The notes under the pieces: generated by a model
The model's database searches: none
Told to the model about the DNA's origin: nothing
Seen by the model: the letters and a program-made list of their open reading frames with translations, nothing else
Shown: positions 2,065-25,183 of the stretch, in pieces
Numbering within the stretch: position 1 is the first letter of the stretch
Layout of the letters: every line of letters begins with the position of its first letter
Made by a program: the position numbers and the translations under genes
IMG/VR virus record: IMGVR_UViG_3300013005_000034
Coordinates: 1 to 64,000 of that record
Length of the DNA stretch: 64,000 nucleotides
Source: a virus
Reading direction: 5' to 3' (one strand)

Positions 2065-2586
2065 ATGAAAAAATATAAAATTGAATTATCAGAACAGCAA
2101 ATGATGTTAATTGCTAATTGTCTTGAAGATTTGTCAAGGTTTGCATCAGGTCAATCTGAAATGAGATATACAGTTGAAGAAATGTTGCGTGGCTTATCGT
2201 TTGATGAACAAATGAAAAAACGTGATGAGGTTGAAGAATTATTAAAGAAAGCTAAAAGAGTATTATTGCCTAATTTTCCTGATAATGCAAGTAAAGGTTA
2301 TAATGGTAGTGAGTTTATTGGAAATACTTATCAGATTTACAGAAGTATATTATACCAATTAGCCAAAGATAATAACTGGAATAATGTTTATTCTTCACCT
2401 GCTTTGCCAAGTGGTAATTTAGGGACAATTAAAATTGAATTGGTTGATGTAAAACAAAATACAGCCTTGCAATTGCAACAAGCTGGTGTTATAAAATCGG
2501 TTTGCGAACATAAGCATATTTCGGGTGGATATTTTGGAGGTGATAAGTATATTGTAAAATGTAAAGATTGCGATGAAATAACTTAG
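2065..2586 (+). CDS. Hypothetical protein; C-terminal Cys/His segment lies inside cassette 1
   Basis: ORF reads through the GTT at 2488 (AG-V-IKS). Confidence 0.7.
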   Translation: MKKYKIELSEQQMMLIANCLEDLSRFASGQSEMRYTVEEMLRGLSFDEQMKKRDEVEELLKKAKRVLLPNFPDNASKGYNGSEFIGNTYQIYRSILYQLAKDNNWNNVYSSPALPSGNLGTIKIELVDVKQNTALQLQQAGVIKSVCEHKHISGGYFGGDKYIVKCKDCDEIT

Positions 2587-2599
2587 CAAACTGACTTAT

Positions 2600-2664
2600 A
2601 ACGTTTTGCAGCTAATGGCTGTGAGCTTCTGAAAGTGGGCTGAAAATAGCCATTAGGTGCTGTT
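2600..2664. repeat. attC-like hairpin linker 1
   Basis: aac gtttt gcagctaatggct...agccattaggtgc t gtt. Confidence 0.8.
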
Positions 2665-2710
2665 ATGTTTTAGTTTTATTTTATTAATTTTTAAAAAAAG
2701 CGAAGGAATT

Positions 2711-3085
2711 ATGAAACAATTATTTGAAGAAAAAGAACTTATTGGAAAAACAATAGCTCAGGTTTTAATGCCAAAAGAAAGCTATCAAGATATGTGGATA
2801 AAATTTACCGACAATTCTTTTGCTGTATTTGATACGGAGGATAGGACGGAAGGGTTTGGACAAGAAAGGCGTATTCTTGTTATTTCTGATTGGGAAAAAG
2901 ACAATACAAATGAAGAATTAGTTGAGTTAGGACTAATAACAAAAGCTGAACACAAATACGCATTGGAGGAGGAAGAAAAAAGATACAAAAAAGAAAGAGC
3001 TGAACGAGACGCTGTTGAGCAAAAAAGAATTGAAGATTACGAGAAGGAACAACTTGCCAAACTTAAAACGAAATACGATGCGTAG
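2711..3085 (+). CDS. Cassette 2 cargo, hypothetical protein
   Basis: ATG 2711 just inside the left arm; stop just before the right arm. Confidence 0.75.
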   Translation: MKQLFEEKELIGKTIAQVLMPKESYQDMWIKFTDNSFAVFDTEDRTEGFGQERRILVISDWEKDNTNEELVELGLITKAEHKYALEEEEKRYKKERAERDAVEQKRIEDYEKEQLAKLKTKYDA

Positions 3086-3118
3086 GCTTTTAAAAATTAA
3101 TAAAATAAAATTGAACAC

Positions 3119-3245
3119 AACGGCACTCGGCTAAACTCTCGTTGCCGACTTAAATATGAGAGATAAACTTAATTAAAAGCACAAAATTATGAGTACAAAA
3201 AATATTTCAAACGAAGAAAAAGACAATGGAGTTTTAGCCGATGTT
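3119..3245. repeat. attC-like linker 2, contains the start of the next ORF
   Basis: tcggctaaactc...gagttttagccga t gtt; ATG at 3189 in the loop. Confidence 0.8.
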
Positions 3246-3419
3246 ATGCAACGTGATTTATATGCAGAATTACGTTCATCAGGTAGTATGACTTCTGACC
3301 AATGCTGTGAAGTTTTAGATTGGACAGAAAAATTACCAATACAAATTATAGGGTTAAATAATGTTAAGGTTTCAATAGTGCAAGGTGTTATTAGGGTAGA
3401 ACCTAATCATGTTGCATAA
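3189..3419 (+). CDS. Cassette 3 cargo, hypothetical protein
   Basis: Starts in the linker; stop TAA overlaps the terminal AAC. Confidence 0.7.
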   Translation: MSTKNISNEEKDNGVLADVMQRDLYAELRSSGSMTSDQCCEVLDWTEKLPIQIIGLNNVKVSIVQGVIRVEPNHVA

Positions 3420-3464
3420 CGTTTTGCGTATAAAAAATCGTTTTAATGTTTTTTATACGCTGTT
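3418..3464. repeat. Short attC-like linker, near-identical to 17502-17548 and 23985-24031
   Basis: gcgtataaaaaa tcgttttaatg ttttttatacgc. Confidence 0.9.
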
Positions 3465-3570
3465 ATAACCAGTAGGGATTATTTAGTAGTAACTTTAATC
3501 GGAGAACTGAACAAAAAATTAAAACAAAAAAAAGCGAATAATTTTTTAATAACTAATAAATAAAAACAAA

Positions 3571-4026
3571 ATGATGACAATTTCTAAATTAGCTTCTGAA
3601 ATCAGGGGCGAAAACAACAAAAAAGAATCTGAAAATGATTACAAAAGATTAACTGATACTTTGAAGCAATTCAATGAAGATTTCAAAGAGGTTGTTTGTG
3701 ATTTAATTAAATGTGAGGTTAAATACGAACCTTGTTTTTGGTATAAAAGTGATAACGATGGGCAATATCATATTTTCCCACACGAAACCAAATTAGATTT
3801 AAAAATGAATGGTGGAAGTGGTGGAACTTGTATTGCTAATTCTATTCTTTTCACATTTAATCACAATGGAGAAACAAGAAAGAAAAGATTATTTTATACG
3901 GAAAATAAAGGTTGGTATTATATTGCTCGTAGAGGAAATCACATGAATGATGATTATTTAATAAAAGATTACAGAAAAGACTTCATATTATACCTTGATA
4001 GTTATTTTGAAGGTGAATATAAATAA
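3571..4026 (+). CDS. Cassette 4 cargo, hypothetical protein
   Basis: 151-aa ORF filling the cassette. Confidence 0.75.
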   Translation: MMTISKLASEIRGENNKKESENDYKRLTDTLKQFNEDFKEVVCDLIKCEVKYEPCFWYKSDNDGQYHIFPHETKLDLKMNGGSGGTCIANSILFTFNHNGETRKKRLFYTENKGWYYIARRGNHMNDDYLIKDYRKDFILYLDSYFEGEYK

Positions 4027-4105
4027 ATCATTTGTGGGTGGGCTTTTTTGTTTTAATTTTTTGAACAATAAAGTTAATTCGGAGCAGTCCACCCCTATTG
4101 GTTAT

Positions 4106-4195
4106 AACGTTTTGCAGCTAACAGAAGTGGCTGCTTGTAAGAACTTCTGAATTAAAAACAAATGCTTGTAGCAGCCATTTTTGTTAGGTGCTGTT
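4106..4195. repeat. attC-like linker 4
   Basis: gcagctaacagaagtggctgct...agcagccatttttgttaggtgc. Confidence 0.8.
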
Positions 4196-4220
4196 ATAGG
4201 CTGTAAAAAATTAAAAAGCG

Positions 4221-4421
4221 ATGGAATTACAACTGATTAACTTAGGTAGAAACAACATTAACAAAACTATTGTTGTGAAAAACGAAAAAGCAATGTGGCG
4301 TGAACTTTCTAAACATTTAATGAGCAAAGGAATTGAACTTTCACCAACTGACGAACCGAATAAATACGATGTGTATGTAGGAATGTTTAGAAATGTTGGA
4401 CAGGTGATTATTAAAGAGTAA
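4221..4421 (+). CDS. Cassette 5 cargo, hypothetical protein
   Basis: 66-aa ORF between the arms. Confidence 0.7.
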   Translation: MELQLINLGRNNINKTIVVKNEKAMWRELSKHLMSKGIELSPTDEPNKYDVYVGMFRNVGQVIIKE

Positions 4422-4453
4422 CTGTGCGTAGGCTTTAATTTTTTATTGCCTAT

Positions 4454-4534
4454 AACGGTAGGAATTTGCGTCTGTTGATTTTTTACCAACAAGACAATAG
4501 ACGCTTAAAAAATCAATAGCGCAAATTTATTGTT
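4454..4534. repeat. attC-like linker 5
   Basis: aatttgcg(t)ctgttgatttt...aaaatcaatagcgcaaatt with one bulged T. Confidence 0.8.
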
Positions 4535-4557
4535 GGGCGCAGTTAAATTAAATCGGA

Positions 4558-4740
4558 ATGAGCAAACAAACAACTTGGAGCGAAAGAGCAAAATGCTATG
4601 ACGCAAAACACACAGAAAATGGAACAATATTATATTATGTGTGCCTTATTACAGGGAAGAAAACAGAATTGAAACACCCTGATAAACTTGCTTTATCGGC
4701 ATATATTGGGCATATAGGGGCTTTAGTGCAGTCCTATTAA
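4558..4740 (+). CDS. Cassette 6 cargo, hypothetical protein
   Basis: 60-aa ORF between the arms. Confidence 0.65.
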   Translation: MSKQTTWSERAKCYDAKHTENGTILYYVCLITGKKTELKHPDKLALSAYIGHIGALVQSY

Positions 4741-4748
4741 TTGCGCCC

Positions 4749-4871
4749 AACGGCTACGGCTATACGCAGTTGCGAACTTAAAAATTAAACAAAATGATAA
4801 AAAAAGAAGATTACTTAAAAGCAAAAGAAACCGTTGAAAAATACGAAGAGCAATTGCGTATAGCCGATGTT
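4749..4871. repeat. attC-like linker 6, contains the start of the next ORF
   Basis: cggctatacgcagttgc...gcaattgcgtatagccg; ATG 4794 in the loop. Confidence 0.8.
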
Positions 4872-5024
4872 ATGCGTAGTGCTAATTGCTACAATGAACT
4901 GAAAGCATTTTTGCAAGAGAAAAAGAAAAGTCCAAGATTATGCGCTTGGGATAGTGTTCACCATCAAGAGATATGGGATAAAATGCTTGAACTCGAACAG
5001 AAGTATTCAGAGCATTACGCATAA
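4794..5024 (+). CDS. Cassette 7 cargo, hypothetical protein
   Basis: Starts in the linker, ends at TAA(C). Confidence 0.7.
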   Translation: MIKKEDYLKAKETVEKYEEQLRIADVMRSANCYNELKAFLQEKKKSPRLCAWDSVHHQEIWDKMLELEQKYSEHYA

Positions 5025-5107
5025 CGGTTGAGGCTATGAGCAGTTGCCTTATAAATACTGCTCAATTAACCACAAATGTTGATAGGCAATTGCTTATAGC
5101 CTTTGTT
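5023..5107. repeat. attC-like linker 7
   Basis: aggctatgagcagttgcct...aggcaattgcttatagcct. Confidence 0.8.
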
Positions 5108-5124
5108 AGCACCAGTTTTTTATT

Positions 5125-5379
5125 ATGAATTACGAAGAAATAAAACAAAAAGTAACGGACAGAGAAATCAACTGTGAACAAGCATTTGAAAGCCTTGCAG
5201 AAATCGGTTATTGTCCAAATTTATTAAACGATGATAACGGTCATTGGGCTGTTAAATTTGATGGCTTTCAAAATGTGCCAATGGGTGATGAACCTGATGA
5301 TATTTCAACTACTTGTTTTATTGAAGCAAAGGATTGGAAAGATAGTATTTACGAAGCACTTGTTTGGGCGTTGTCCTAA
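5125..5379 (+). CDS. Cassette 8 cargo, hypothetical protein
   Basis: 84-aa ORF between the arms. Confidence 0.7.
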   Translation: MNYEEIKQKVTDREINCEQAFESLAEIGYCPNLLNDDNGHWAVKFDGFQNVPMGDEPDDISTTCFIEAKDWKDSIYEALVWALS

Positions 5380-5389
5380 AATTGGTGCT

Positions 5390-5484
5390 AACGTTTTGTG
5401 GCTTTGTGTCTGTTATTTTGGCTTGCAGACACTCGCCTTTAAAGATAAATTTTATAGCCAAAATAATAGCACAAAACCACTGTT
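5390..5484. repeat. attC-like linker 8
   Basis: gtggctttgtg(t)ctgttattttggct...agccaaaataatagcacaaaaccac. Confidence 0.8.
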
Positions 5485-5512
5485 AGTGGCTGGTGCGGTA
5501 AATTAAGAACAA

Positions 5513-5725
5513 ATGTTTAATAACAATCAAATTCAAAAAGTAGAAATAGACCAAGAAAAGAAAAAACTTTATGTCTATTATGTTCAGGACAACTCACATT
5601 TAATGAGTAACCCACCTCCGCCACCAAGTTATTATAGAGAAGTTTTTTCTTTTGATAATTTGGAATTTATTGAAAAGGAATATGCAAAAGTAGAACGAGG
5701 ATTTGAAAAGGTAACGTGGTCGTAG
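5513..5725 (+). CDS. Cassette 9 cargo, hypothetical protein
   Basis: 70-aa ORF between the arms. Confidence 0.7.
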   Translation: MFNNNQIQKVEIDQEKKKLYVYYVQDNSHLMSNPPPPPSYYREVFSFDNLEFIEKEYAKVERGFEKVTWS

Positions 5726-5736
5726 CACTTGCCACT

Positions 5737-5853
5737 AACGGTTCTCGGCTTGGCGAAGTTGCCGAACACAAAACTTCATTAGAATTACAAATTTTTAAAT
5801 TTAGATAAAATGTCAAACGAAGAACTAAACGGCAATTTTGCCAAACCGATGTT
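5737..5853. repeat. attC-like linker 9, contains the start of the methyltransferase
   Basis: tcggcttggcgaagttgccg...cggcaattttgccaaaccga; ATG 5810. Confidence 0.8.
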
Positions 5854-6466
5854 ACCTGCCGTTGTGGGTTCTCAAAGGAAATACCAAATTATTTACGCTG
5901 ACCCTGCTTGGTCACACTATAACGATATGACCGTTACTGTGCAACAGAATAAAGCAAAGGATTTTATTAGTAGAAACCCATATCCAGTAATGTCAAGTTC
6001 AGATATAAAAGCGTTGCCAATAAAAGATATAGCCGATGAAAATTGCATTTTGTTTATATGGACTACGGACTATCATTTATCAAGATGCTGTGAAGTGATA
6101 AAGGCTTGGGGATTTGAATATAAAACAGTTGGTTTTGTGTGGCAAAAGTTGAATAAACAAAATAAGCCTGTATGCTTTATGGGAAACTACACTTTGAAAA
6201 GTGGCGTAGAAATATGTTTATTAGCCACAAAGGGTAAGGGGGCTGCCAAATTAGTTAAGAAACGAAATGTAAGGTCGTTAGTTCAAAGCCAACGTGAAGA
6301 ACATAGTAAGAAACCCGATGAAGTAAGAAATAGAATAGTAGAACTTTGTGGCGATATACCAAGAGTAGAATTATTTGCAAGGGAAAATCACGATGGGTGG
6401 GATGCTTGGGGTAATGAAGTGGAAGAAAGTATCAACTTGGAAACGTCTGCTAACAATGGCAGGTAA
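5810..6466 (+). CDS. MT-A70 family adenine methyltransferase (cassette 10 cargo)
   Basis: IIYADPAW, LFIWT, AWGFEYKT, HSKKP, ELFAR, GWDAWGNE motifs. Confidence 0.9.
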   Translation: MSNEELNGNFAKPMLPAVVGSQRKYQIIYADPAWSHYNDMTVTVQQNKAKDFISRNPYPVMSSSDIKALPIKDIADENCILFIWTTDYHLSRCCEVIKAWGFEYKTVGFVWQKLNKQNKPVCFMGNYTLKSGVEICLLATKGKGAAKLVKKRNVRSLVQSQREEHSKKPDEVRNRIVELCGDIPRVELFARENHDGWDAWGNEVEESINLETSANNGR

Positions 6467-6514
6467 CGGTTTGCGTATAAGAGCCGTTTTTTCAATGGCT
6501 TCTTATACGCTGTT
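6465..6514. repeat. attC-like linker 10
   Basis: gcgtataagagcc...ggcttcttatacgc. Confidence 0.8.
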
Positions 6515-6570
6515 ATGCTCTCGTTTTGCGTGGGTGGGCTTGATAAAATATTAACTTAAAAAATATACAA

Positions 6571-6807
6571 ATGGAAATTGAAACAGTATCAGATTTAGCA
6601 AATGTAATAGCCGATTGGATTGGTGTTTATGGAGCTTGTAAAGACGAAGGTAAAAGTGATGGGTGCGAATTTTCTGAAAAGAAAGTTGCTTGTTGCAGAG
6701 TAGGATTTACAATGCACTTAGAGGAACGAATTAGAGAGGCTGTTGAAAATGATAAGAAAATTGAGGAAATGAATTTGCGTGAGCTGGCAAAGCAAAATGG
6801 AGCATAA
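6571..6807 (+). CDS. Cassette 11 cargo, hypothetical protein
   Basis: Ends at TAA(C) of the right arm. Confidence 0.7.
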   Translation: MEIETVSDLANVIADWIGVYGACKDEGKSDGCEFSEKKVACCRVGFTMHLEERIREAVENDKKIEEMNLRELAKQNGA

Positions 6808-6808
6808 C

Positions 6809-6894
6809 TCCAATCTTTGCGCTATATTAATGGAAATAAAAAGTTATTAACAATAGTATAATTAGATTATTTTATTACCTATATTTACCACAAT
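6809..6894 (+). promoter_or_regulatory. Conserved array-terminal element, copy 1 (attI-like site plus probable promoter)
   Basis: tttgcgctatattaatggaaataaaaagttattaacaatagtataatt shared with 18412-18496 and 25098-25183. Confidence 0.7.
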
Positions 6895-6909
6895 TAAAAA
6901 CCGAACAAA

Positions 6910-7344
6910 ATGCAAAATAACAAAACAGAATTTAAGATTAGGAATTTTTTTATAGATGAAAAAAATTATCTTCAAATTAAGAGTAATGATAAATTAATAT
7001 TCTTAACTCTATACTTAAATGGAGAAAAAAGAGGTAGGAATATAGGAACTGTTACTAAATCTACCCGAACAATATTTATGAAACGCAAAGTAGATAAACA
7101 TTTATTTAGGAAATTGAACGCTTGGGGGTTCAACGATTATGTTTTAAGAAATCAAAGTACATTCGATTTTGTGAGTTTAAGCGATGATAAAGGAAACCAT
7201 TGGAGTAAGATACCTGTAAGTATGATTTTAGAGGGAGCTACATACTTAAATTTTAAAAGTCAGGGATTTGAATTACAAAGATTTGTTTCTTTGGAAGATT
7301 TAGAGAAATATAAAGTAAAAAAAGAAGATAATACGAGATTTTAA
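6910..7344 (+). CDS. Hypothetical phage protein
   Basis: 144-aa ORF downstream of the terminal element. Confidence 0.75.
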   Translation: MQNNKTEFKIRNFFIDEKNYLQIKSNDKLIFLTLYLNGEKRGRNIGTVTKSTRTIFMKRKVDKHLFRKLNAWGFNDYVLRNQSTFDFVSLSDDKGNHWSKIPVSMILEGATYLNFKSQGFELQRFVSLEDLEKYKVKKEDNTRF

Positions 7345-7345
7345 G

Positions 7346-8140: not shown

Positions 8141-8144
8141 TTTT

Positions 8145-9054: not shown

Positions 9055-9094
9055 TAAAAGTTTTAAATACCATTAAAAAATTCTACGGTCAAAA

Positions 9095-16622: not shown

Positions 16623-17104
16623 AAAACAAATGGAACAATTAGAACAACAATTAAATGAAAAAATGCTACAAATAGCAAAAGATTACATTCAGAGAAGAAA
16701 TGATAAACCTTTTGAGCAATACGAGGAGGCAAATTATCTTAATGAAAAATACCTTTCAGTAAAAAATGAATTTGAAAAGGAAGGCGATTTTTATATAATC
16801 TTAAATGAGTGCATAAAAGTAGTTTTAGGAAAAACAAAAAAAAATACAATATGAAAATTAAAAAAAGAAAAATTAAAAACCCTTGTACTATTTGTGGTAA
16901 AGAAGTTCGTTGGGGAATTGATGGATGCCCTATTGTTGAAAAAGGCAAAGATTTTGAAACTTTATTGGGTGGAGTAAAAGGTATGAAGCATTATGAGTGC
17001 AAATAAAATTTTTAACATAACGGTTTGCAAATAGGCAATCGTTTTAATGTTGCTTATTTGCTGTTAGCACCAATACGGATTATTAACAACAAAAATTAAA
17101 TAAG

Positions 17105-17491
17105 ATGAAAGAATTTAAAAAAGAAAATTTAGAATTTTACTTACCTGATACATTTAAAGGATTAAGTAAAGATTATTTACTTGAATGTATCTTCAATGAT
17201 GAGATACAGAAAAAATGGAATCCTGATGTTGGAGATATTATTATTGGTTGCACTGGCAATATTTTTGTAATTGGGGTTAAAGAAACATTACATGAAAGTA
17301 TTGGTGGGGCGAGATATTATTTTGGTGGTGGCTCTTGTAATAGAGATGGTGGTAATATATTAGACAGCACATTTTGTTATACCGCAAATGAATCAGGTAA
17401 GTTTTATCACACATTAAAAGGTGAAATTCAAAATATTTATCATTCGTGTATTAGAGATTTTAGATACGTTCCTTATCCACACGAAAGGTAG
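17105..17491 (+). CDS. Cassette cargo, hypothetical protein
   Basis: Between arms gttagcaccaatac/gtattggtgctaac. Confidence 0.75.
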   Translation: MKEFKKENLEFYLPDTFKGLSKDYLLECIFNDEIQKKWNPDVGDIIIGCTGNIFVIGVKETLHESIGGARYYFGGGSCNRDGGNILDSTFCYTANESGKFYHTLKGEIQNIYHSCIRDFRYVPYPHER

Positions 17492-17575
17492 TATTGGTGC
17501 TAACGGTTTGCGTATAAAAAATCGTTTTAATGTTTTTTATACGCTGTTATATTTAGTTTTTTAAAACTTTTACAA

Positions 17576-17761
17576 ATGAAAAATATAGAAGAAGCAATAC
17601 AACTTAACTCAATAGATGAAATTGAGGAAGAAATAAGACAACGAAAGGAATTAAGAGCAACGATGGTTGGTCAATTATATCCAAGAATATTAACTGACGA
17701 GATTTATAAACTCAATGAAAAGTTGTGGAATATAAGACACTCAAAAGTTTTAAAAACTTGA
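17576..17761 (+). CDS. Cassette cargo, hypothetical protein
   Basis: 61-aa ORF between the arms. Confidence 0.65.
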   Translation: MKNIEEAIQLNSIDEIEEEIRQRKELRATMVGQLYPRILTDEIYKLNEKLWNIRHSKVLKT

Positions 17762-17809
17762 ATATAACCGCTAACAGATATATGTAGTTTTAACACAATA
17801 TTTAATAAT

Positions 17810-18058
17810 ATGGAAGAAAGTAAAAATTTAGAACAAAATTTGAATAAGAGTAATGAAAAATTACATATATCTAATGTTAGTTGTAGTTTATCATACCAAC
17901 CAAGTTATGTTGAAACTGTTTGTGAAGGTGTGTTTTTCAGAATTAAAGCACCATTGATATTCAGTGCTGATGTTTTAGCTTATGCTGGTATATTTTCTTT
18001 GTTAGACAAAAAACACACCTTTGAATATTATTGCTTAAAATATCTATCTGAAAGATAA
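17810..18058 (+). CDS. Cassette cargo with linker-encoded N-terminus
   Basis: Starts in the linker loop (MEESKN...LHISN-V-SCS). Confidence 0.65.
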   Translation: MEESKNLEQNLNKSNEKLHISNVSCSLSYQPSYVETVCEGVFFRIKAPLIFSADVLAYAGIFSLLDKKHTFEYYCLKYLSER

Positions 18059-18221
18059 ATTACAACTAACGGTTTGCGTGTATAAGAAGTGGCGGATTAG
18101 AACTCCAAAACTTTCAGCAAACGCAGAACTTAATTAGAATTACAAAACATTAAATAACCAAGAAACCCGCCATTTTTTATACACGCTGTTAGTGGCTGGG
18201 CTTTTCACAAATTGAAACAAA

Positions 18222-18398
18222 ATGAACAAAATATTGATATGTGTATTATTGCAAATCGTTCTTTTTATTCCATTTTATTTGATATGGAGAAATGATTGTA
18301 AAACGATAGGTAAAGACAACTTGGCTGTTAGCTTACAAGAACGATTTTTGTATTGGCTAATATTTTGTCCAATTTGGTTGGTTGGTGTGTTGGATTAG
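18222..18398 (+). CDS. Cassette cargo, 58-aa two-TM protein (not in ORF track)
   Basis: MNKILICVLLQIVLFIPFYLIW...FLYWLIFCPIWLVGVLD. Confidence 0.65.
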   Translation: MNKILICVLLQIVLFIPFYLIWRNDCKTIGKDNLAVSLQERFLYWLIFCPIWLVGVLD

Positions 18399-18411
18399 CC
18401 TTGCCACTAAC

Positions 18412-18496
18412 TTACTTCTTTACGCTACAATTAAGGAAATAAAAAGTTATTAACAATTGCATAATTAAATAAAATAATTACTAATTTTGACCACAA
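18412..18496 (+). promoter_or_regulatory. Conserved array-terminal element, copy 2
   Basis: cgctacaattaaggaaataaaaagttattaacaat...ctaattttgaccac, contains TAATTTTG. Confidence 0.75.
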
Positions 18497-18751: not shown

Positions 18752-18802
18752 AAAATCACAAACAAACAATAAACCAAAACACAAATCAAAATCACAAACA
18801 AC

Positions 18803-19996
18803 ATGAAAAGACAAACCACCCTCGCAGAATTGGTAACGGAGTTGAAAGACCAAAATCTGCAAAAAAAAGATTTCGTAGTTCCTGCAAATCTTTTATCAAT
18901 GGAAAATGGAAAATTAGTAGTGAACAATTATAGTTCAAACGATTCTCTACAAAAGATACTTACAGAAGTAGGTATTCAATCAGAGGATTCCAATAAACTA
19001 ATTTTAAATTGCTTACCTGTAATTCATCAAAACTTATCAGATAAATGCGATATTCCTCGTAAATACTATAATCGTATTCAAGGACTAAAAGACCAAACAC
19101 TAATTGATACAAATGTTACTCATTGGTTAAAATCCATGAAAGGAAATGTTTTTTTAAGAACATTTATTGACAAAGATGAACAAAATGGATTCGCAAGAGC
19201 ATTACTTTCAGATAGATATAACGTAATTGATAACTTTGATGTTTTATTAGCTACACTTGAAGCAGTTAAGAATAGTGGATTAAACTTAAAGATTGAAGAT
19301 AACGGTTGTGATTTATCAGAATCTAAAATGTATGTAAGATTTGTTGCTCCTGAAATTGAAATTAACGCACCCGATTTATTAAAAAACTACAAAAATCCAA
19401 AAGGTAATAGTAATGTAGGTGATGGTATTATTACTGGATTTGTTGTTACTAATAGCGAAATAGGGCAAGGTTCATTTAATATCAGTCCAAGAGCTGTTAT
19501 ATTAAAGTGCCAAAACGGAATGGTATTTAAAAATGATGCCTTTGGTAAAATTCACTTAGGTTCAAAAATGGAACAATATTCTCAAATTGATTGGAGCGAA
19601 GAAACTAAAAGAAAAAATTACGAGTTAATTCAGGCGCAAGTAAAAGATGCGGTTAAGAAATTCACAAGCGAAGATTTTTTAGCACAAAAAATAAGTGAAT
19701 TAAACGAATATGCTGAAATTGAATTAAAACATCCTATTGAAACAGTTAAGAATGTTAGCAAATTATTAAACATTACCGAAGAAAAAGAAAAAAGTATTCT
19801 TGACTTCTTTATGAGAGGTGGCGATTTTAGTTACATGGGAGTAAGTCAGGCATTAACATTCTTTGCTCACGAAACAAAAGATGCAGACGAAGCTCACGAT
19901 TTAGAAACAACAGCTATTGAAATTTTACCAAAAATTAAAGAGTTGGATAAACCCTCTGTTTCAAAATCAGTTAAAACTCAAATGAGTTTAAATTAA
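18803..19996 (+). CDS. DUF932-family protein
   Basis: RALLSDRYNVIDN, NSEIGQGS, CQNGM motifs. Confidence 0.75.
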   Translation: MKRQTTLAELVTELKDQNLQKKDFVVPANLLSMENGKLVVNNYSSNDSLQKILTEVGIQSEDSNKLILNCLPVIHQNLSDKCDIPRKYYNRIQGLKDQTLIDTNVTHWLKSMKGNVFLRTFIDKDEQNGFARALLSDRYNVIDNFDVLLATLEAVKNSGLNLKIEDNGCDLSESKMYVRFVAPEIEINAPDLLKNYKNPKGNSNVGDGIITGFVVTNSEIGQGSFNISPRAVILKCQNGMVFKNDAFGKIHLGSKMEQYSQIDWSEETKRKNYELIQAQVKDAVKKFTSEDFLAQKISELNEYAEIELKHPIETVKNVSKLLNITEEKEKSILDFFMRGGDFSYMGVSQALTFFAHETKDADEAHDLETTAIEILPKIKELDKPSVSKSVKTQMSLN

Positions 19997-20010
19997 TAAT
20001 TTAGGAAATA

Positions 20011-20040
20011 AAAAAAGGGGGAAATCACGCCCCCTTTCTA
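20011..20040 (+). terminator. Probable intrinsic terminator
   Basis: aaaggggg-aaatcacg-cccccttt hairpin after the DUF932 gene. Confidence 0.55.
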
Positions 20041-20150
20041 AACCAAAGACACTATGTCAAAATAACACTAACGCCACAATAGGCGATACTAAATTATAAA
20101 TTAAATAAACAATTAATTAATTTTTATATTATACAACTAAATTGTAAAAA

Positions 20151-21038
20151 ATGAACATCAGTCAATCACTACTAAAATCCCTATTAGATTATCGTAATGG
20201 AAAAGAATGTGGATTAATATTTAAGGCAAAGTATATAGATGGAAGATACGATTTATTTCCTCCCTCCGATGCACAAAATGTAGGTGCATGGTTTGAATAT
20301 ATGGCTACTGGTAGCATACCTAAAAATGGTATAGTGCCAAAAGCAGAATATATGAAAAGAGGTAAAGATGAAAATGGCAACCCTGAACTTACTGCCGATT
20401 ATCGCTTAATGAGAGAACATATAGATAATTTCAAAAAGAATATGGAGAGTTACTCATTAGATATTATTACAGCAGGAGAAGATATTAAAGTTTTATATCC
20501 TAATTCTTTAGAAGAATATGGAGAAGAAGTTTATTTAACAGGAACTCTTGATGTAAGAGCAAGAGCAAATAAAGATATTTTTGCTAAATACCAAGATACT
20601 ATCGTTAAGGTAGCTTCAAAAGATGAAGAAGTTATTATTGATATTAAAACGACTGGATTGTTAGACGATAAATGGTCGGAAATGGGCTGGGAGATTAATA
20701 ATCTATCAAATAAAATTAAACTTGTTACTCAACCTGTTCACTATAAATTTATTGAGTATTTAAAAACAGACAAAGATGTACCTTTTATATTTATGTTGTT
20801 CAATTCTAAAAACTCAAAAGATGCAAGAATTATTGATTTTAAAGTTGATAGTTCATCTTTTGAAGAACATAAAGCGTTTATTGAATCGGGAGTTGAAAAT
20901 ATGTTGCATTTGAGAAAATATGGTTTCAAAGCGTTGCCATCACTTGAAAAATGTTCAAAATGTCCTTTGAATACTGATTGTAAGTTTAAAGCAGAAATTT
21001 CGCCAATAACTATATTTTATTTTGCTCATCAGGTTTAA
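20151..21038 (+). CDS. PD-(D/E)xK (RecB/Cas4-like) exonuclease
   Basis: GTLDV...IIDIKTT and C-terminal CSKCPLNTDC. Confidence 0.75.
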   Translation: MNISQSLLKSLLDYRNGKECGLIFKAKYIDGRYDLFPPSDAQNVGAWFEYMATGSIPKNGIVPKAEYMKRGKDENGNPELTADYRLMREHIDNFKKNMESYSLDIITAGEDIKVLYPNSLEEYGEEVYLTGTLDVRARANKDIFAKYQDTIVKVASKDEEVIIDIKTTGLLDDKWSEMGWEINNLSNKIKLVTQPVHYKFIEYLKTDKDVPFIFMLFNSKNSKDARIIDFKVDSSSFEEHKAFIESGVENMLHLRKYGFKALPSLEKCSKCPLNTDCKFKAEISPITIFYFAHQV

Positions 21039-21173
21039 TATATTATGTTTGTATCGCACAATTCAACTAAAATGAAATTACAAAAAAAATATTTAAAAAA
21101 AACCTTTAAGCAAGTAGGAATCCTCTATTTTTAGTTGATTGTGCAACCTACTTGCGAGAAGGGATTTTTAATC

Positions 21174-21986
21174 ATGGAAACATCATTAATTATTGAAATT
21201 TCATCTTTGCCTTGTATAGATGATAAAAGAGGGCGTTATAGAACAATAGAATTATATCCAAAAATTAGTGGAATTTATAAAATAACATCTCCTAATGGCT
21301 CTATTTATATTGGTTTATCAAATGATATTTATTATAGGATTTATAGTTGTTATAAGAAATTAAGATGTAAGGCTCAACATAAAATATATAATTCTTTAAT
21401 TAAATATGGTATTGATAATCATAAATTTGAAATTATTCATATTGTTGAAAATTTTGAAGAATATGAGAAAATTAAAATTTTAAGAAAATTAGAAATAGCT
21501 TATATACAAAAATATAATTCATTTTATGGAAATAATAATTTTGGAATGAATTTAACAAAAGGAGGCGAAATAATTGAATTAACAGATGAAACTAAAAAAA
21601 TAATGAATGATAAGAAAAAAGGTAGGATTGTTTCCCAAGAAACAAGAGAAAAGTTAAGGAAAATAAATTTAGGTAAAAAATTATCACAAGAACATAAAGA
21701 TAAAATTAGTATATCTCATAAAGGAAAAATTGTTTCAGAATTAACAAAAAAAAGATTAAGTGAATCTCACAAAGGAGAAAAACATAGTTTTGAACGAATA
21801 CAAAAAAAAATTGGAAGTAAACAAAATCCTGAAACAATAAAAAAAAGAATTGATAAGATTAGCGGTATTAATCATTGGACAAAAAAATATGGCGGTCATT
21901 CAGAGCAAACAAAGATAAAAATAAGTATATCACTCAAAGAAAGGCATAAAAAAATGTCTAATAAGAATGAAAAAAACACTAATTAA
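21174..21986 (+). CDS. GIY-YIG homing endonuclease with NUMOD3 repeats
   Basis: SGIYKIT...IYIGLS; repeated SQETREKL/SEQTKIKIS. Confidence 0.85.
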   Translation: METSLIIEISSLPCIDDKRGRYRTIELYPKISGIYKITSPNGSIYIGLSNDIYYRIYSCYKKLRCKAQHKIYNSLIKYGIDNHKFEIIHIVENFEEYEKIKILRKLEIAYIQKYNSFYGNNNFGMNLTKGGEIIELTDETKKIMNDKKKGRIVSQETREKLRKINLGKKLSQEHKDKISISHKGKIVSELTKKRLSESHKGEKHSFERIQKKIGSKQNPETIKKRIDKISGINHWTKKYGGHSEQTKIKISISLKERHKKMSNKNEKNTN

Positions 21987-22278
21987 AAGAAAAAAATTAA
22001 GTAAGAGTTTAAGAATAAAAATATTTGAGAGGGATAATTATGAATGTCAGTTGTGCTATGACAATTTAATAGATAAAAAAGATTTAAGAGTAATAGACCA
22101 TAAAATACCTCTTTCAAAAGGAGGCAGTAACTCAATATCAAATCTTTGGCTACTTTGTAATGATTGTGATAAAAGAAAGAAAAATAAATTGTTTCCTGAA
22201 TTGATGAAACAATACATAAAGGGTAAGTTAAATTATCTTTCTAATTTAAGATTTAATGGAAATCGTTATAATAAGTGA
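21967..22278 (+). CDS. HNH endonuclease
   Basis: RDNYECQLC...DHKIPLSKGG...NLWLLCNDC. Confidence 0.85.
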   Translation: MKKTLIKRKKLSKSLRIKIFERDNYECQLCYDNLIDKKDLRVIDHKIPLSKGGSNSISNLWLLCNDCDKRKKNKLFPELMKQYIKGKLNYLSNLRFNGNRYNK

Positions 22279-22504
22279 ATATGAAAATTTACCTTACATA
22301 GTTAAAAGCGAGAATGGAGAAATATATCAGTTAAGTTATTATGATACTAAAAAAAGAATTAAAAAATACAAAATATTAATACCTAAAGAGCATAACGGAA
22401 GTATGTATTATAGAATTAATAGTGAGAGATATTCAGATTATAGATTAAAAACAATTGAGATTAAAGTTTATAAAAGAATTAACCTAAATAAAATAAAAAA
22501 ATGA
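22256..22504 (+). CDS. Hypothetical protein
   Basis: ORF track. Confidence 0.6.
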   Translation: MEIVIISEYENLPYIVKSENGEIYQLSYYDTKKRIKKYKILIPKEHNGSMYYRINSERYSDYRLKTIEIKVYKRINLNKIKK

Positions 22505-22791
22505 AACCATTAAAAATCAAAGGAGTTAAATTAAAAAAAGGAGAAGAATTATTACATTATTATCCTTTTTGTTATTGCATAGCAAAATCTACTGAAAGTA
22601 GTGCTTTATTTGTAATACCTCCACAAAATAAAGGAACTGTTGCAGATAATGGTTATTTAAGCGTTTGTTTTGATTATAAATTATGTAAAGATGTAAAAGT
22701 AGGAGATTGGTGCGAAGTAGGTTATATAAGTGATTATAGTAAAGGAGAAAATAAAGTGCTTAAAATATTAAAATCTAAAAAAAATAAATAA
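22501..22791 (+). CDS. Hypothetical protein
   Basis: ORF track. Confidence 0.6.
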   Translation: MKPLKIKGVKLKKGEELLHYYPFCYCIAKSTESSALFVIPPQNKGTVADNGYLSVCFDYKLCKDVKVGDWCEVGYISDYSKGENKVLKILKSKKNK

Positions 22792-23023
22792 TATGAATAA
22801 AAAAATTAATATTATAGGAATCATTATTTTTTTATTTTCTCTTTCATATTTAACAATATACACTATGATTATTGATTTATATTATGGTATATCTATGGGA
22901 TTAATTTCAATTTTATTTATAATAATTATATTAAAAAGTAAAAAAAAGAAAAATGAATAAGTATGGAAAATAAAAATACTTTCTATGGGATTGAAATATT
23001 TAAAAACTAAAAAAAATAAAAAT

Positions 23024-23061
23024 AAATAAAAACAAACAAAATGAAAACAACAAAAACAAAA
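23024..23061 (+). repeat. 38-bp direct repeat, left of array 3 (second copy 25205-25242)
   Basis: aaataaaaacaaacaaaatgaaaacaacaaaaacaaaa at both sites. Confidence 0.7.
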
Positions 23062-23085
23062 ACAAAAATGAAAACAACAAAAAAA

Positions 23086-23313
23086 ATGGAACACAAAAAT
23101 TTGAATACAAAAGAAACCGCCAATAGCGATTTAGGTGCTGTTAGCGGTAGTTTGAGGGAACAATCTCTTGAATGGTTTTTCGCAAAAAGTGAAATTGAGA
23201 AACACGATTTAAAAGACAAACACTTTCCAAACACACCAATACAGCATAGTAGGCAATGGGGATTTCATTTCACTTTTGGTCAAATTGAGGAAATGTATGT
23301 TAAAGAACGGTAA
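23086..23313 (+). CDS. Cassette cargo with linker-derived N-terminus
   Basis: MEHKNLNTKETANSDLGA-V-SGS crosses the GTT at 23140. Confidence 0.7.
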   Translation: MEHKNLNTKETANSDLGAVSGSLREQSLEWFFAKSEIEKHDLKDKHFPNTPIQHSRQWGFHFTFGQIEEMYVKER

Positions 23314-23391
23314 CAAATTACCGCTAACGGTTTGCAAATATATTTCAGTTGCGGTAAAAATAATAATAACTTAATTAAATAAATAAAAAAA

Positions 23392-23946
23392 ATGGAAAAC
23401 ACAAAAAAAGCATACAAAGAAATATTTAAAGTCTTAAATAAATATAAAGATGTTATTGTTATTGATATTAAAACATTAGAGGAAAAATCAAAACTCCATT
23501 TATTTGGATTAGAATTAAAAGAAGTTTACGGACTTGAAATCAATGAGAAACGTATCAATAATATGCAATATCAGGAATTAAAAGACAACGTATATCTAAC
23601 TTTTATTGATAGCGAAACGAGAACTATAAGCTGGGAAGATAATGGCAAAAAACCAAAAGGAGAAAGTTTGATTAAGTTTAGTTATCCAACAGGAGCTTAC
23701 ATTTTTGGTGGAGATTATCCTACTGATTTTTTCCAAAAGTTTTTTTTAGAATTGAAATCATTTAATCCCGATTATTGCGATAGCGCCAATAAAAGCCTGT
23801 ATTTTAAATTGGAAAATGCAAAAGAAATATTTAATAGTTATGATTCAATAATAAAAAAATATTACGAATTAAACAAAGAAGATATTAAACAAAGACAGAT
23901 TTTAAAAATGAAAGCCGATTTAGAAAAATTAGAAGCAAGTAAGTAA
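23392..23946 (+). CDS. Hypothetical protein in a damaged cassette
   Basis: 184-aa ORF; right arm present, left arm missing. Confidence 0.75.
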   Translation: MENTKKAYKEIFKVLNKYKDVIVIDIKTLEEKSKLHLFGLELKEVYGLEINEKRINNMQYQELKDNVYLTFIDSETRTISWEDNGKKPKGESLIKFSYPTGAYIFGGDYPTDFFQKFFLELKSFNPDYCDSANKSLYFKLENAKEIFNSYDSIIKKYYELNKEDIKQRQILKMKADLEKLEASK

Positions 23947-24135
23947 CGCACCCACAGGCGGGGAGGGTTTTAAAACTTGTACCTAACGGTTTGTGTATAA
24001 AAAATCGTTTTAATGTTTTTTATACGCTGTTATAACCAGTAGGGATTATTAAGTACAAATGCTCATTCGGAGAAGTAAACAAAAAATTAAAACAAAAAAA
24101 GTGTAGGGAATAATTAATCAATTAAATAATAAAAA

Positions 24136-25008
24136 ATGACAACAGAAAAACAATTTGGCGACTTATCACATTTTGCAAAAAGAGATGTAGAACTTTTTAG
24201 AAGTTCAGACCAAAACGAAACCGCTATCTATTTTACGGAATTAGAAGATAAGCAAAGAGAAACTGCGAAAGCGTTTTTTGAAATACTGCGATTTGGCTTG
24301 GATGGTGGCGACCATCAAATATATGTTCGTTTCCCAAATACTGACCATTTTGTAGAAATGATTGGTGGTGGATTTGGTTCAGGTAGAGGGTATATGAAAG
24401 TAGCTGATGGTAAAAATGTTTGGGAGGATAAAAACAAAGCACCATTTAGAATCTATTCACATAATAAGGATTTACTTTTCATAATTGGTAGAACTGATTG
24501 GACTGGAGAATTTAATTTTATGACAAAAGTTGCAAGTTATGATAAAGGAAATCCATTCAATCATCCTTATCCTAATGAAACATTTGTGAATTTCAAAGAG
24601 ATTGAAAAAGCACTTTCAATGAAATATTTAAAGATACCTGAAAGTATAAGAAAGATTGAATATTGCTACAAAACTAAAGATACAACACCAAAATATTTTG
24701 TAGTGGATTATCCAGCTTACAATTTCAAATATGACAACCATAGATTTTTTGTGATTGAAAATGAACATATAAAAGAATTTGGGATTAAAAACTTTGTAAG
24801 ATACAAAGATGGTGGAACAACTATCATTACTGTAACCGATGAAAACGGAATTGAACACAAATTCTTTTCACCAACATCATTGCCTGAAAAAACGCTTTGT
24901 GAAAAGTGGGATAAAACTGAATTGATAGAAGCAAGTGAAACTGAAAAGCAAAAACTTACAGAACTTTTGAATTTGAATGTAGAACCAAATATAGTTGACA
25001 AAGAATAA
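24136..25008 (+). CDS. Cassette cargo, hypothetical protein
   Basis: 290-aa ORF inside a shell homologous to cassette 4. Confidence 0.8.
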   Translation: MTTEKQFGDLSHFAKRDVELFRSSDQNETAIYFTELEDKQRETAKAFFEILRFGLDGGDHQIYVRFPNTDHFVEMIGGGFGSGRGYMKVADGKNVWEDKNKAPFRIYSHNKDLLFIIGRTDWTGEFNFMTKVASYDKGNPFNHPYPNETFVNFKEIEKALSMKYLKIPESIRKIEYCYKTKDTTPKYFVVDYPAYNFKYDNHRFFVIENEHIKEFGIKNFVRYKDGGTTIITVTDENGIEHKFFSPTSLPEKTLCEKWDKTELIEASETEKQKLTELLNLNVEPNIVDKE

Positions 25009-25097
25009 TCATTTAGTCATTTGTGTGTGGATTTTTTTGTTTTAATTTTTTGAACGATAAAGTTAATTCGGAGCAGTCCACACCTATTGGTTATAAC

Positions 25098-25183
25098 TTA
25101 TTTATTTGCGCTACAATTAAGGAAATAAAAAGTTATTAACAATAGTATAATTATGTAAAATAATTACTAATTTTGACCACAAT
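25098..25183 (+). promoter_or_regulatory. Conserved array-terminal element, copy 3
   Basis: tttgcgctacaattaaggaaataaaaagttattaacaatagtataatt...taattttgaccac. Confidence 0.75.

Follow-up and report, generated by a model that had tools for sequence, protein, structure and literature searches.

Three cassette arrays of a lake phage as probable integron-type arrays of a Bacteroidota-specific kind

In CTX-type elements, a Xer-family recombinase of the host acts on a hairpin that is folded from one strand of the phage DNA, and the whole phage genome is integrated at dif. Surveys performed with IntegronFinder retrieved hardly any integrons in Bacteroidetes (PMC9024848), and in the Polaribacter phage P12002L a CALIN with two predicted attC sites was described (Qi et al., 2023; PMC9892861). 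HattCI predicted both P12002L_attC1 and attC2, the latter being predicted by Infernal in addition; attC2 is the site that did recombine, and section 3.4 and Table S3 of that study report no verified recombinants of P12002L_attC1 with the class 1 integrase IntI1 (PMC9892861). In T4-type phages, PeSLs were described as promoter-terminator motifs that work via homologous recombination (PMC2839356; PMC4122927). The stretch of DNA analysed here, the window, comprises the first 64,000 nucleotides of the IMG/VR virus record IMGVR_UViG_3300013005_000034, in which genes separated by hairpin-forming linkers are organized in three arrays (Table 1). We assign a probability of roughly 0.6 to the reading that these are integron-type cassette arrays of a Bacteroidota-specific kind, with reversed gene polarity and probably recombined by an enzyme of the host.

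The first-pass annotation of the window had proposed three arrays with 17 units running from GTT to AAC, and every element that it described was recovered. The units measure 115 to 1069 bp, and an eighteenth array gene with no recognisable left arm lies between the linkers at 23326 and 23985. The ends of each unit, its arms, are complementary to each other: in an anchored alignment of the left arm with the reverse complement of the right arm, own-arm pairs reached a mean score of 13.0 (median 12), whereas the 272 non-cognate pairs had a mean of 4.6 in the same alignment. The claim that an arm matches only its own partner stands, with shared arm families as the exceptions, as high non-cognate scores are confined to the pairs U3/U17, U7/U11, and U8/U14, whose members share an arm family and carry unrelated cargo proteins; the arms of U17, about 75 nt in length, are common to U3. 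At arm position 11, a G.T wobble is conserved. The stop codon overlaps TAAC in several units (e.g., 3189-3419, 4794-5024, 5810-6466, and 6571-6807), as had been noticed at first reading.

Table 1. Coordinates of arrays, units, linkers (AAC to GTT in array 1) and associated elements in the window.
Feature	Position	Strand	Description
Array 1	2488..6808	+	11 units U0-U10, each with GTT start, AAC end and self-complementary ends
U0	2488-2602	+	
Linker	2600-2664	+	attC-like
U1	2662-3121	+	
Linker	3119-3245	+	attC-like
U2	3243-3420	+	
Linker	3418-3464	+	attC-like
U3	3462-4108	+	
Linker	4106-4195	+	attC-like
U4	4193-4456	+	
Linker	4454-4534	+	attC-like
U5	4532-4751	+	
Linker	4749-4871	+	attC-like
U6	4869-5025	+	
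Linker	5023-5107	+	attC-like
U7	5105-5392	+	
Linker	5390-5484	+	attC-like
U8	5482-5739	+	
Linker	5737-5853	+	attC-like
U9	5851-6467	+	
U9 cargo	5810..6466	+	MT-A70 family DNA methyltransferase; Pfam PF05063 1.3e-30; phrog_359 DNA methyltransferase
Linker	6465-6514	+	attC-like
U10	6512-6808	+	
Array-1 terminal element	6809..6900	+	directly after last AAC; one of three homologous copies
Array 2	17019..18411	+	U11-U14
Linker	17019-17065	+	
U11	17063-17504	+	
Linker	17502-17548	+	
U12	17546-17768	+	
Linker	17766-17878	+	atypical
U13	17876-18070	+	
Linker	18068-18190	+	
U14	18188-18411	+	
Array-2 terminal element	18412..18496	+	second copy of common ~75-nt sequence
Array 3	23140..25097	+	U15, decayed linker, gene, linker, U17
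U15	23140-23328	+	3' part of ORF 23041-23313
Linker	23326 onward	+	decayed
Gene	23392-23946	+	
Linker	23985-24031	+	
U17	24029-25097	+	
Array-3 terminal element	25098..25183	+	third copy

The 16 linkers of the three arrays follow the pattern YAAC, 5 nt, stem-loop, 1-2 nt, and GTTR, with a length of 47-127 nt. With fixed settings, a linker detector gave 11 hits on the + strand of the window against 2 on the - strand, compared with a mean of 0.95 and a maximum of 4 in 100 dinucleotide shuffles; the hairpin pattern proposed initially is confirmed. At the linker base on the + strand, YAACG is paired with TGTTR in a 5-bp box, the spacer forms a one-sided bulge of 4-5 nt on the 5' side only, and above the bulge follows an imperfect hairpin of 33-115 nt. 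The array 1 linkers fold with -12 to -34 kcal/mol and are G.T-rich on the + strand; in 27 phage hairpins, 71 G.T/T.G pairs stand against 5 C.A mismatches, and the + strand gives the more stable fold in 22 of the 27. Good folding is limited to the + strand because this strand is G.T-rich, and it is therefore the counterpart of the 'bottom strand' of integron attC sites. Compensatory double changes at 12 of the 21 consensus pairs (11 linkers from 8 sources) show by covariation that the linker structure is under selection. Hairpins between the genes of a cluster that is read in one direction might also be ordinary terminators of transcription or targets of RNase III, a reading which is disfavoured and hardly credible, since the stems are not followed by a T-run, terminator-like hairpins number 4 with 2.4 expected and only one of them overlaps a linker, and neither type of element has invariant TAAC/GTTA borders and arm pairing across a gene. 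The linkers are thus not intrinsic terminators, a role that the first-pass annotation had named as incompatible with its cassette interpretation. A scan covering sigma-70 only, with Bacteroidota promoter types outside its range, revealed no promoter in the linkers, and in array 1 neither sigma-70-like promoters nor terminators were in excess.

The linker family is widespread in phages of Flavobacteriia, including IMG/VR contigs, Baltic Flavobacterium isolates and Polaribacter phage P12002S, which displays the full cassette architecture. In IMG/VR, at least 14 loci qualify as true linkers, having stems of at least 8 pairs, and their source phage genomes have no proteins in common; likewise, no protein is common to the six linker-bearing phages that were compared. 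Furthermore, seven MAG contigs carry the linker family, of which six are labelled Bacteroidota and one Gammaproteobacteria. In cultured relatives, cassettes are visibly gained, lost, and reordered, precisely at the borders of the hairpins. Comparison of seven near-identical Baltic phages gave 70 breakpoint clusters, which are non-independent events; 60 of them hold TAAC[GT] and 5 more sit at T-GTTA only, compared with a null mean of 5.0 and a maximum of 12. A 506-bp cassette indel with TAACGTT at both borders and flanks of 99.9% identity distinguishes mumin6-1 from mumin6-3, and the block order differs between mumin and hattifnatt/snusmum/snork. In lake metagenomes, one contig goes on beyond position 18411, where array 2 ends, and enters a further linker-like sequence, and another contig fuses the U14 arm with the U8 gene. 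The relatives hence do not show the fixed gene order that had been named as a counterargument at the outset, nor do most of their breakpoints fall away from AAC/GTT, the other such counterargument, and the phage arrays combine complementary cassette ends with gain and loss at the core, both of which are traits of integrons.

Such exchanges could also be explained without a site-specific enzyme, if TAACGTT and the stem bases served as portable homology for homologous or microhomology recombination, or for slippage across hairpins, between co-infecting phages, similar to the PeSLs of T4-type phages (PMC2839356; PMC4122927). The 506-bp indel carries 7 nt of microhomology and some breakpoints fall 10-26 nt within shared stems, observations which homologous recombination or replication slippage fit equally well, and a recombinase is absent from most phages. 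Portable homology leaves unexplained, however, why unit ends are complementary over 14-75 nt, why the G.T bias affects one strand, why the wobble at arm position 11 is conserved, and why the same sites form arrays beside a chromosomal tyrosine recombinase, and we regard it as unlikely.

These chromosomal arrays link the linkers to an enzyme. In Bacteroidota chromosomes, the same linkers are arrayed directly downstream of a Xer-like tyrosine recombinase: locus L125 holds two linkers approximately 100 nt from a 370-aa tyrosine recombinase, one of which is identical to window positions 6465-6514 at 49 of 50 nt, the 2.84-Mb chromosome L184 as well as L186 have arrays of three to four detected linkers beside the recombinase gene, and one linker was detected in L185. 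Among 401 sampled Bacteroidota genomes, about 30 contain a close homologue of the recombinase (about 50-72% identity), and by the strict detector a canonical linker lies within 1.5 kb of it at 8 of 30 loci, in the same relative orientation at seven of these and in the other orientation at L168. The cognate-end signature is present in chromosomal arrays as well (e.g., L184 8608/10419 and L186 13202/13833). NCBIfam names the enzyme 'site-specific tyrosine recombinase/integron integrase', its nearest solved relatives are XerA proteins rather than IntI, and on TIGR02249 it scores 194-210 bits, below the cut-off of 265, with the alignment split into two segments between which model positions 180-237 are missing. 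As it lacks the IntI-specific insertion, the loci are not integrons in the strict sense of an IntI beside an array; the earlier term 'integron-like' gains support from a Xer/IntI-like tyrosine recombinase adjoining them. An IS200/IS605-kind single-strand transposon, whose hairpin-guided units would insert 3' of TAAC and be moved by a HUH (Y1) transposase, would agree with the indel falling exactly after TAAC, with the strand specificity of the hairpins and with a stand-alone TnpB gene of the phage (36037-37209). It is nevertheless very improbable, as that gene is 11 kb distant and on the opposite strand, the proteins scanned with Pfam and PHROGs included no Y1 transposase, and the chromosomal arrays adjoin a tyrosine recombinase instead.

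The orientation of the genes bears on the choice between DNA and RNA. In phages, linker and gene lie on the same strand in 37 cases and on opposite strands in 1, whereas the genes of chromosomal arrays are opposite to the linker strand in 9 cases and on it in 2, the latter arrangement being that of L177; the integron layout, in which a gene precedes its own site, is thus found in chromosomes (9/11) while the site comes first in phages (37/38). The 'reverse polarity' proposed for the phage arrays is accordingly literal with respect to chromosomal Bacteroidota arrays. The loops of linkers 3119, 4749, and 5737 contain the ribosome site and the start codon of the following gene, and for this reason GTT falls within the ORF. 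It is conceivable that linkers and arm pairing act as RNA elements in a polycistronic early mRNA, in processing, end protection or translation control, with shuffling as a by-product. The G.U bias on the sense strand, the three sequestered start codons, the co-orientation of linkers and genes in phages, and an RNA ligase and a HAD RNA-repair domain encoded by the phage would be consistent with such a role. We judge it quite improbable: in chromosomes the G.T bias (43 vs. 2) stays with the same DNA strand although the genes lie opposite to it, no Rfam family matched the linkers, and no RNase is common to the compared phages. As the folding strand is unchanged while the genes switch strands, single-stranded DNA is favoured over mRNA as the folded molecule, which gives indirect backing to the folded single-stranded DNA suggested earlier.

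On the preferred reading of integron-type arrays, each linker would be an attC-like recombination site, and a cassette would extend from after AA|C, the predicted cut, through its own linker, GTT, arm, gene, and second arm to the next AA. In the circular cassette the two arms would flank the cassette's own linker and lengthen its basal helix to 14-75 bp, with G.T at position 11; opening of the circle at the linker and its insertion into an array would then place one arm on each side of the gene. A cassette that is an opened circle would have arms that pair solely with the other end of their own unit. A tyrosine recombinase (PF00589) was found neither in 73.6 kb of the phage record, which is estimated to be 62% complete, nor in the complete phages G001, mumin6-1, and P12002S; given its absence from the 73.6 kb, we infer that catalysis is likely performed by a host recombinase, with phage DNA in single-stranded form as its substrate. 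Part of the exchange may stem from homologous recombination at conserved linker bases. As the phage genes are on the folding strand, the site is 5' of the gene and transcribed.

The cargo of the arrays is accessory and consists of DNA methyltransferases and numerous small proteins with no assigned function; of all array cargo in the window, the U9 methyltransferase alone matched a Pfam family. The cassette-borne DNA methyltransferases are anti-restriction functions. By visual comparison, every array closes with AAC followed by a common element of about 75 nt. The copy after array 1 holds GTTATTAAC and a TAnnTTTG-like box, which we take to be a putative promoter motif, and this element is a candidate attI-like site and/or promoter of the following operon. 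Chromosomal arrays beside the recombinase end alike, in AAC|TYAYTTAT.

A broader proposal, which we put forward tentatively, is that a second integron-like system, not recognised before, is common to Bacteroidota and the virulent phages that infect them, and that phages which lack a recombinase borrow the host enzyme during infection and swap anti-defence cassettes, methyltransferases for example, by which host range would shift on ecological time scales. Such a shared system would comprise a Xer-like recombinase lacking the insertion, attC-type sites with long arms, a common cassette pool, and arrays of reversed polarity. If this is true, integron-type cassette capture is not confined to IntI-bearing bacteria, and a simpler Xer-like enzyme drives it in Bacteroidota, with lytic phages of abundant aquatic Flavobacteriia also within its reach. 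This would account for the hypervariability of the early regions in such phages, and a concrete mechanism would be provided for the methyltransferase differences that were linked to plating efficiency (Nilsson et al.; PMC7077304). As cultured phage-host pairs exist, namely Muminvirus on Flavobacterium sp. LMO6/LMO9 and the Polaribacter phages, the mechanism is directly testable. For annotation, current integron finders appear to overlook the recombinase and most of the sites.

In comparison with known systems, the arrays share with integrons and CALINs an imperfect palindrome that has AAC/GTT cores at its base and varies in its distal part, the folding of one strand, mostly one gene per cassette, and complementary cassette ends, which in integrons arise because the cassette is a permuted circle and would do so here as well. 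Moreover, as in integrons and CALINs, chromosomal arrays adjoin a tyrosine recombinase of the Xer/IntI lineage and arrays that lack a recombinase occur elsewhere; provided that the linkers count as attC-type sites, the phage arrays, with at least two such sites and no integrase nearby, are CALINs. The first-pass annotation had emphasized complementarity beyond the 7-bp core and a 5-nt spacer, and both differences hold: the helix of integron attC sites has 7 bp, whereas the basal helix here would extend over 14-75 bp and has G.T conserved at position 11, and the spacer, with 5 nt on one side against 1 on the other, is a one-sided bulge of 4-5 nt unlike that of attC. In addition, the recombinase lacks the IntI insertion and is in line with its cassettes, whereas the integron integrase is divergent, and the phage gene is on the folding strand with the site 5' of it, unlike in integron cassettes. 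P12002L_attC1 is a short-type member of the present family (YAAC, 5 nt, stem, the conserved loop TCGTTTTAATG, stem, and GTTA), its published 'bottom' strand corresponds to the + strand here, and the CALIN of P12002L, sister phage of P12002S, carries two methyltransferase genes; attC2 is atypical for the family (PMC9892861). The initial view that the architecture was undescribed thus has to be corrected for this one site, already predicted as attC; that study reported two predicted sites in P12002L, and neither the array-wide organization nor cognate arms, a link to a recombinase or strain-level shuffling. Like the linkers, PeSLs are repeated intergenic stem-loops that bound small accessory genes in hyperplastic regions where swaps occur (PMC2839356; PMC4122927); unlike the PeSLs there described, the linkers have invariant AAC/GTT borders, arm pairing across the gene, and a chromosomal recombinase partner. 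Finally, unlike CTX-type integration, the system proposed here would exchange single-gene cassettes within arrays.

The 17 units in the window, each running from GTT to AAC, were confirmed in the form described by the first-pass annotation by reading the sequence of 2400-7000 and 16600-25400; the shortest has 115 bp (2488-2602) and the longest 1069 bp (24029-25097). The claim that an arm, i.e., one of the two mutually complementary ends of a unit, matches the other arm of its own unit also proved correct when each left arm was scored against the reverse complement of each right arm, with the alignment anchored on GTT and AAC: own-arm scores had a mean of 13.0 and a median of 12, and the 272 other combinations a mean of 4.6. 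The few high off-diagonal scores derive from three unit pairs with a common arm family (U3/U17, U7/U11, and U8/U14), and despite this common family the cargo proteins within each pair are unrelated. At position 11 the arms conserve a G.T wobble, and they follow the patterns GTTRnnnnn[AT]G[TG] on the left and ATT(G)nnnnnnAAC on the right. The ORF 2065-2586 is a fusion, the final 36 codons of which come from the 115-bp unit U0; residues 1-128 of its product are 78% identical to the product of a gene that is a cassette by itself in G004, another linker-bearing phage genome, and the U0 arms belong to an arm family present in G004 too.

The linkers joining the units have the reported layout as well, namely YAAC and GTTR as borders, with a five-base spacer (mostly GKTTN) after YAAC, one or two bases before GTTR, and a hairpin in between; they are 47-127 nt in length. 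One fixed detector found 11 linkers on the + strand and 2 on the - strand of the window, whereas 100 dinucleotide shuffles gave 0.95 on average and never more than 4; the linker 17766-17878 is atypical and the linker from 23326 is decayed. The linkers at 3119, 4749, and 5737 have long loops in which the next gene has its start codon and ribosome site, which places the GTT inside the ORF. The linker structure is under selection, and this on one strand. When 11 short linkers, taken from the window and seven further sources, were aligned, 12 of 21 consensus pairs kept their pairing through two-sided changes, and 27 curated hairpins of the window phage and G004 contain 71 G.T/T.G pairs vs. 5 C.A single mismatches, the + strand being more stable in 22 of them. 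In the consensus YAACG pairs with TGTTR, and the site thus has a 5-bp box at its base, with a bulge of 4 nt on one side only. A linker subfamily with GGCTTGGCGAAG (window 5737-5853; G004 48620 and 49734) has a C.A mismatch that is conserved in position five of the stem, which may act as an extrahelical or unpaired mark. The reading of the linkers as terminators or promoters was rejected, as a scan of array 1 for terminators and sigma-70-type promoters showed no excess of either. The arrays are closed by homologous elements (see table), each of which has a TAnnTTTG-like box before the next gene and also contains the minimal GTTA/TAAC palindrome GTTATTAAC.

Whether the fold acts as RNA or as DNA can be judged from gene orientation. 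With a strict detector, linker-adjacent genes share the linker strand in phages (37/38) and lie opposite to it in chromosomal loci (9/11, the locus L177 being the exception). At the chromosomal sites it is nevertheless the same linker strand that has 43 G.T/T.G vs. 2 C.A pairs and that is more stable in 9 of 13 cases. A fold selected in mRNA would track the genes; the observed fold tracks the site, which fits a single-stranded DNA substrate, and the + strand fits the equivalent of the attC "bottom strand". According to Table S3 of Qi et al., the bottom strand of P12002L_attC1, a predicted site of the Polaribacter phage P12002L, has the same polarity (PMC9892861).

The proposed shuffling was borne out among cultured phages. 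By blastn in distant mode, the same architecture is present in Muminvirus and its relatives, Baltic Sea siphophages with Flavobacterium sp. LMO6/LMO9 as hosts, and their arrays are mosaics of blocks that are 97-100% identical. One gene of mumin6-1 is missing in mumin6-3 and mumin6-4; the 506-bp difference has TAACGTT at both borders and consists of one linker (with the gene start in the loop), GTT, the gene, and AAC. When seven loci were compared pairwise in both directions by megablast (HSPs with a length of 80 nt or more and an identity of 95% or more), TAAC[GT] was found in 60 of 70 breakpoint clusters, which are non-independent as the same events recur from several genomes, and T-GTTA only in 5 more; random intervals of the same size contained TAAC[GT] in 5.0/70 on average and in 12 at most (500 trials). 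Two of the five other clusters sit 17-20 nt within a shared stem just past a TAAC, and for mumin6-1 alone 10 of 11 internal clusters are at borders (9 TAAC, 1 GTTA). The array ends vary by whole cassettes appended past the last TAAC, and the gene order is not fixed, with two small-gene blocks being reversed in order between mumin and hattifnatt/snusmum/snork. These arrays carry one to five DNA methyltransferase genes apiece, and the isolation paper ties methyltransferase content to plating efficiency (PMC7077304); hairpins, stem-loops, inverted repeats, and palindromes have zero occurrences in its main text (PMC7077304). For the window itself, large portions of array 1 are present in lake-water metagenomes of 2018-2025. 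Two hints come from four lake metagenomes, available as short Logan contigs that break at repeats and give most joints sides of ~21 nt: one contig appears to extend array 2 beyond its last AAC (18411) by GTTTT and a new stem, and another seems to link the left arm of U14 with the U8 gene. Window parts uncovered by these contigs are uninformative.

The linkers form a family that is common among phages of Flavobacteriia, unrelated ones included. A degenerate pattern scan of IMG/VR gave at least 117 stretches, and 16 matches passed the stem filter among the matches listed, those failing it being dismissed as chance matches; two of the 16 represent one weak 7-pair hairpin and are not linkers, so that true linker loci number at least 14, and several of these have cognate arms and additional linkers close by. 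Among the linker-bearing genomes are two complete phages of 39.5 kb and 45.7 kb, both having terminal repeats, and a fragment of 53.7 kb. No protein is common to six linker-bearing phages (blastp, 1e-6) except a GIY-YIG homing endonuclease in three, and G004 has only one gene in common with the window phage. Similarity between linker-bearing contigs is limited to the linker and up to ~100 nt downstream; in unrelated phages it begins at TAAC, crosses the linker, and reaches into the 5' part of the next unit. P12002S, the sister of P12002L, has the full architecture with CAAC/GTTG cores. A stricter pattern matched seven MAG contigs among one-genome-per-species contigs, six of them labelled Bacteroidota and one Gammaproteobacteria. 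G004 also contains 29-nt "empty" units composed of GTTA, stem, the conserved loop TCGTTTTAATG, stem, and TAAC (reverse strand 24449-24477 and 50770-50798; loci L122-L124), and in one of its long linker loops (50647-50770) the motif GGTTCGA, which resembles a tRNA T-arm, occurs twice.

The window, with a G+C content of ~28%, covers the first 64 kb of one virus record of 73,651 bp that has an estimated completeness of 62% (CheckV-type). The + strand genes up to ~33.8 kb are small and mostly of unknown function, and the late genes, including tail-fibre and endolysin genes, are on the - strand; the TnpB-type gene (see table) sits where the + block switches to the - block, with no TnpA seen adjoining. 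A tRNA scan of the window, a megablast search of positions 1-25000 against the phage collection, and an Rfam search at gathering thresholds each gave no match. The closest relatives at the protein level are the IMG/VR loci L002 and L003, with 80% identity to the product of 18803-19996; they contain no linkers and yielded no breakpoint information. They keep the flanking core genes and have 5-6 kb of tightly packed small genes at the position of array 2. The RNA ligase and the HAD-domain protein probably serve in tRNA repair against host anticodon nucleases. RNA circularisation by this ligase was considered and dropped, as other array-bearing phages are without it.

A candidate enzyme lies beside the chromosomal arrays. 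The order in the chromosomal locus L125, which belongs to the MAG contigs matched by the stricter pattern, is linker, esterase cassette with the gene on the opposite strand, second linker, small cassette, array end, and recombinase. The second linker is 49/50 identical to window 6465-6514, and the array end reads AAC followed by TAGTATATACC... with two direct repeats; ~100 nt beyond is the 3' end of the gene for a 370-aa tyrosine recombinase. Chromosomal array ends adjoining the recombinase have a similar start, AAC followed by TYAYTTAT, and direct repeats, and the cargo of the bacterial arrays is clearly cellular, not phage-like. In NCBIfam, the L125 recombinase scores 208 bits with NF040815 ("site-specific tyrosine recombinase/integron integrase"; cut-off 220) and 194 bits with TIGR02249 (integron integrase; cut-off 265), the latter split into two stretches with model positions 180-237 missing between them, and three further array-adjacent homologues behave in the same way. 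By sequence, the nearest solved structures are archaeal XerA proteins, followed by IntI4. Close homologues (~50-72% identity) occur in ~30 of 401 evenly sampled Bacteroidota genomes; 8 of 30 retrieved recombinase loci have a canonical linker (mostly 123-124 nt) within 1.5 kb, and the relative orientation of linker and recombinase is identical in 7 of these 8. Arrays adjoin the recombinase in the loci L184 (four linkers detected; 2.84-Mb chromosome) and L186 (three), and only one linker was detected beside it in L185. In these stretches the cognate arms have the same G.T wobble and all array genes are co-directional with the recombinase, i.e., antisense to the linker as written; a Flavobacteriaceae MAG has this layout too. 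The recombinase locus L188 of a Flavobacterium MAG showed no canonical linker by the strict detector. PF00589 had no match in the window's record, the linker-bearing phage G001, mumin6-1, and P12002S, so that their enzyme would have to be the host's. The phage G003 encodes a distant Xer-like recombinase, 33% identical to the L125 protein across 186 aligned residues, ~1.5 kb from the G003 linkers and on the same strand, which could be an ordinary integrase or an array enzyme.

Table. Coordinates of features in the window and, where a locus is named, in retrieved loci.
Feature	Position	Strand	Remarks
Array-terminal elements	6809-6900; 18412-18496; 25098-25183		Three homologous ~75-nt copies after the last AAC; close arrays 1-3
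RNA ligase	12101-13129		PHA02142 OB-fold and RNA_ligase
HAD domain, "Swiss Army Knife" RNA-repair type	13119-13619		Follows the RNA ligase
Free-standing homing-endonuclease genes	21174-21986; 21967-22278; L001 74-1039	- (L001)	Two of GIY-YIG/NUMOD3 type, one HNH; no protein other than the GIY-YIG type is shared with some further linker-bearing phages
Stand-alone TnpB-type gene	36037-37209	-	OrfB_IS605, Cas12f1-like TNB, and HTH_OrfB_IS605 domains; phrog_506 at 1.4e-120
Esterase	L125 820-1950	-	PHB-depolymerase-like, T9SS sorting tail; in a chromosomal cassette
Xer-like tyrosine recombinase of G003	L136 6867-7760	-	NF040815, 144 bits; G003 is a complete 45.7-kb phage

By analogy with integrons, the folding strand would be cut between AA and C. 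A cassette would then begin with this C and end with the next AA, and comprise, in order, its own linker, GTT, and the gene between its two arms; a cassette so defined is exactly the 506-bp indel, and it fits the similarity between phages from TAAC through the linker to the 5' part of the next unit. In the circular cassette the arms would flank their own linker and thereby lengthen the basal helix; in the arrayed cassette they lie on both sides of the gene and could, in single-stranded DNA, bring the two adjacent sites into proximity. The rarer breakpoints between T and GTTA may represent events on the other strand or homologous exchange, and homologous recombination may have a share in the shuffling as a whole.

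Overall, what the first-pass annotation observed was confirmed, and its interpretation as a phage-borne, reverse-polarity integron-like cassette system shuffled via folded single-stranded DNA is supported in its main lines. Its statement that no description is known holds in part. In openly accessible full texts we found no description of long cognate arms, a reversal of polarity, an architecture of whole arrays in Flavobacteriia phages, border-precise shuffling, or a Xer-like partner in Bacteroidota. However, a single site had already been predicted: Qi et al. (2023) reported CALINs in virulent phages, including P12002L with two methyltransferase genes (PMC9892861), and their P12002L_attC1, a HattCI-only prediction that gave no verified recombinants with IntI1 (PMC9892861), is a short-type member of the window's linker family, conserved loop included. 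A review lists Bacteroidota among the integron-carrying phyla (PMC8618304), and for Bacteroidetes proper the IntegronFinder 2.0 paper reports only In0 elements and one complete integron, in Salinibacter (PMC9024848). A classification of tyrosine recombinases describes the IntI insertion as "not fully conserved" in the integron-like subgroup (PMC8138268). We class the system with integrons and CALINs as a variant, outside strict-sense membership because the IntI insertion, present in integrons in the strict sense, is absent from the Bacteroidota array recombinase, the linkers have a different site geometry, and the genes of the phage arrays have reversed polarity.
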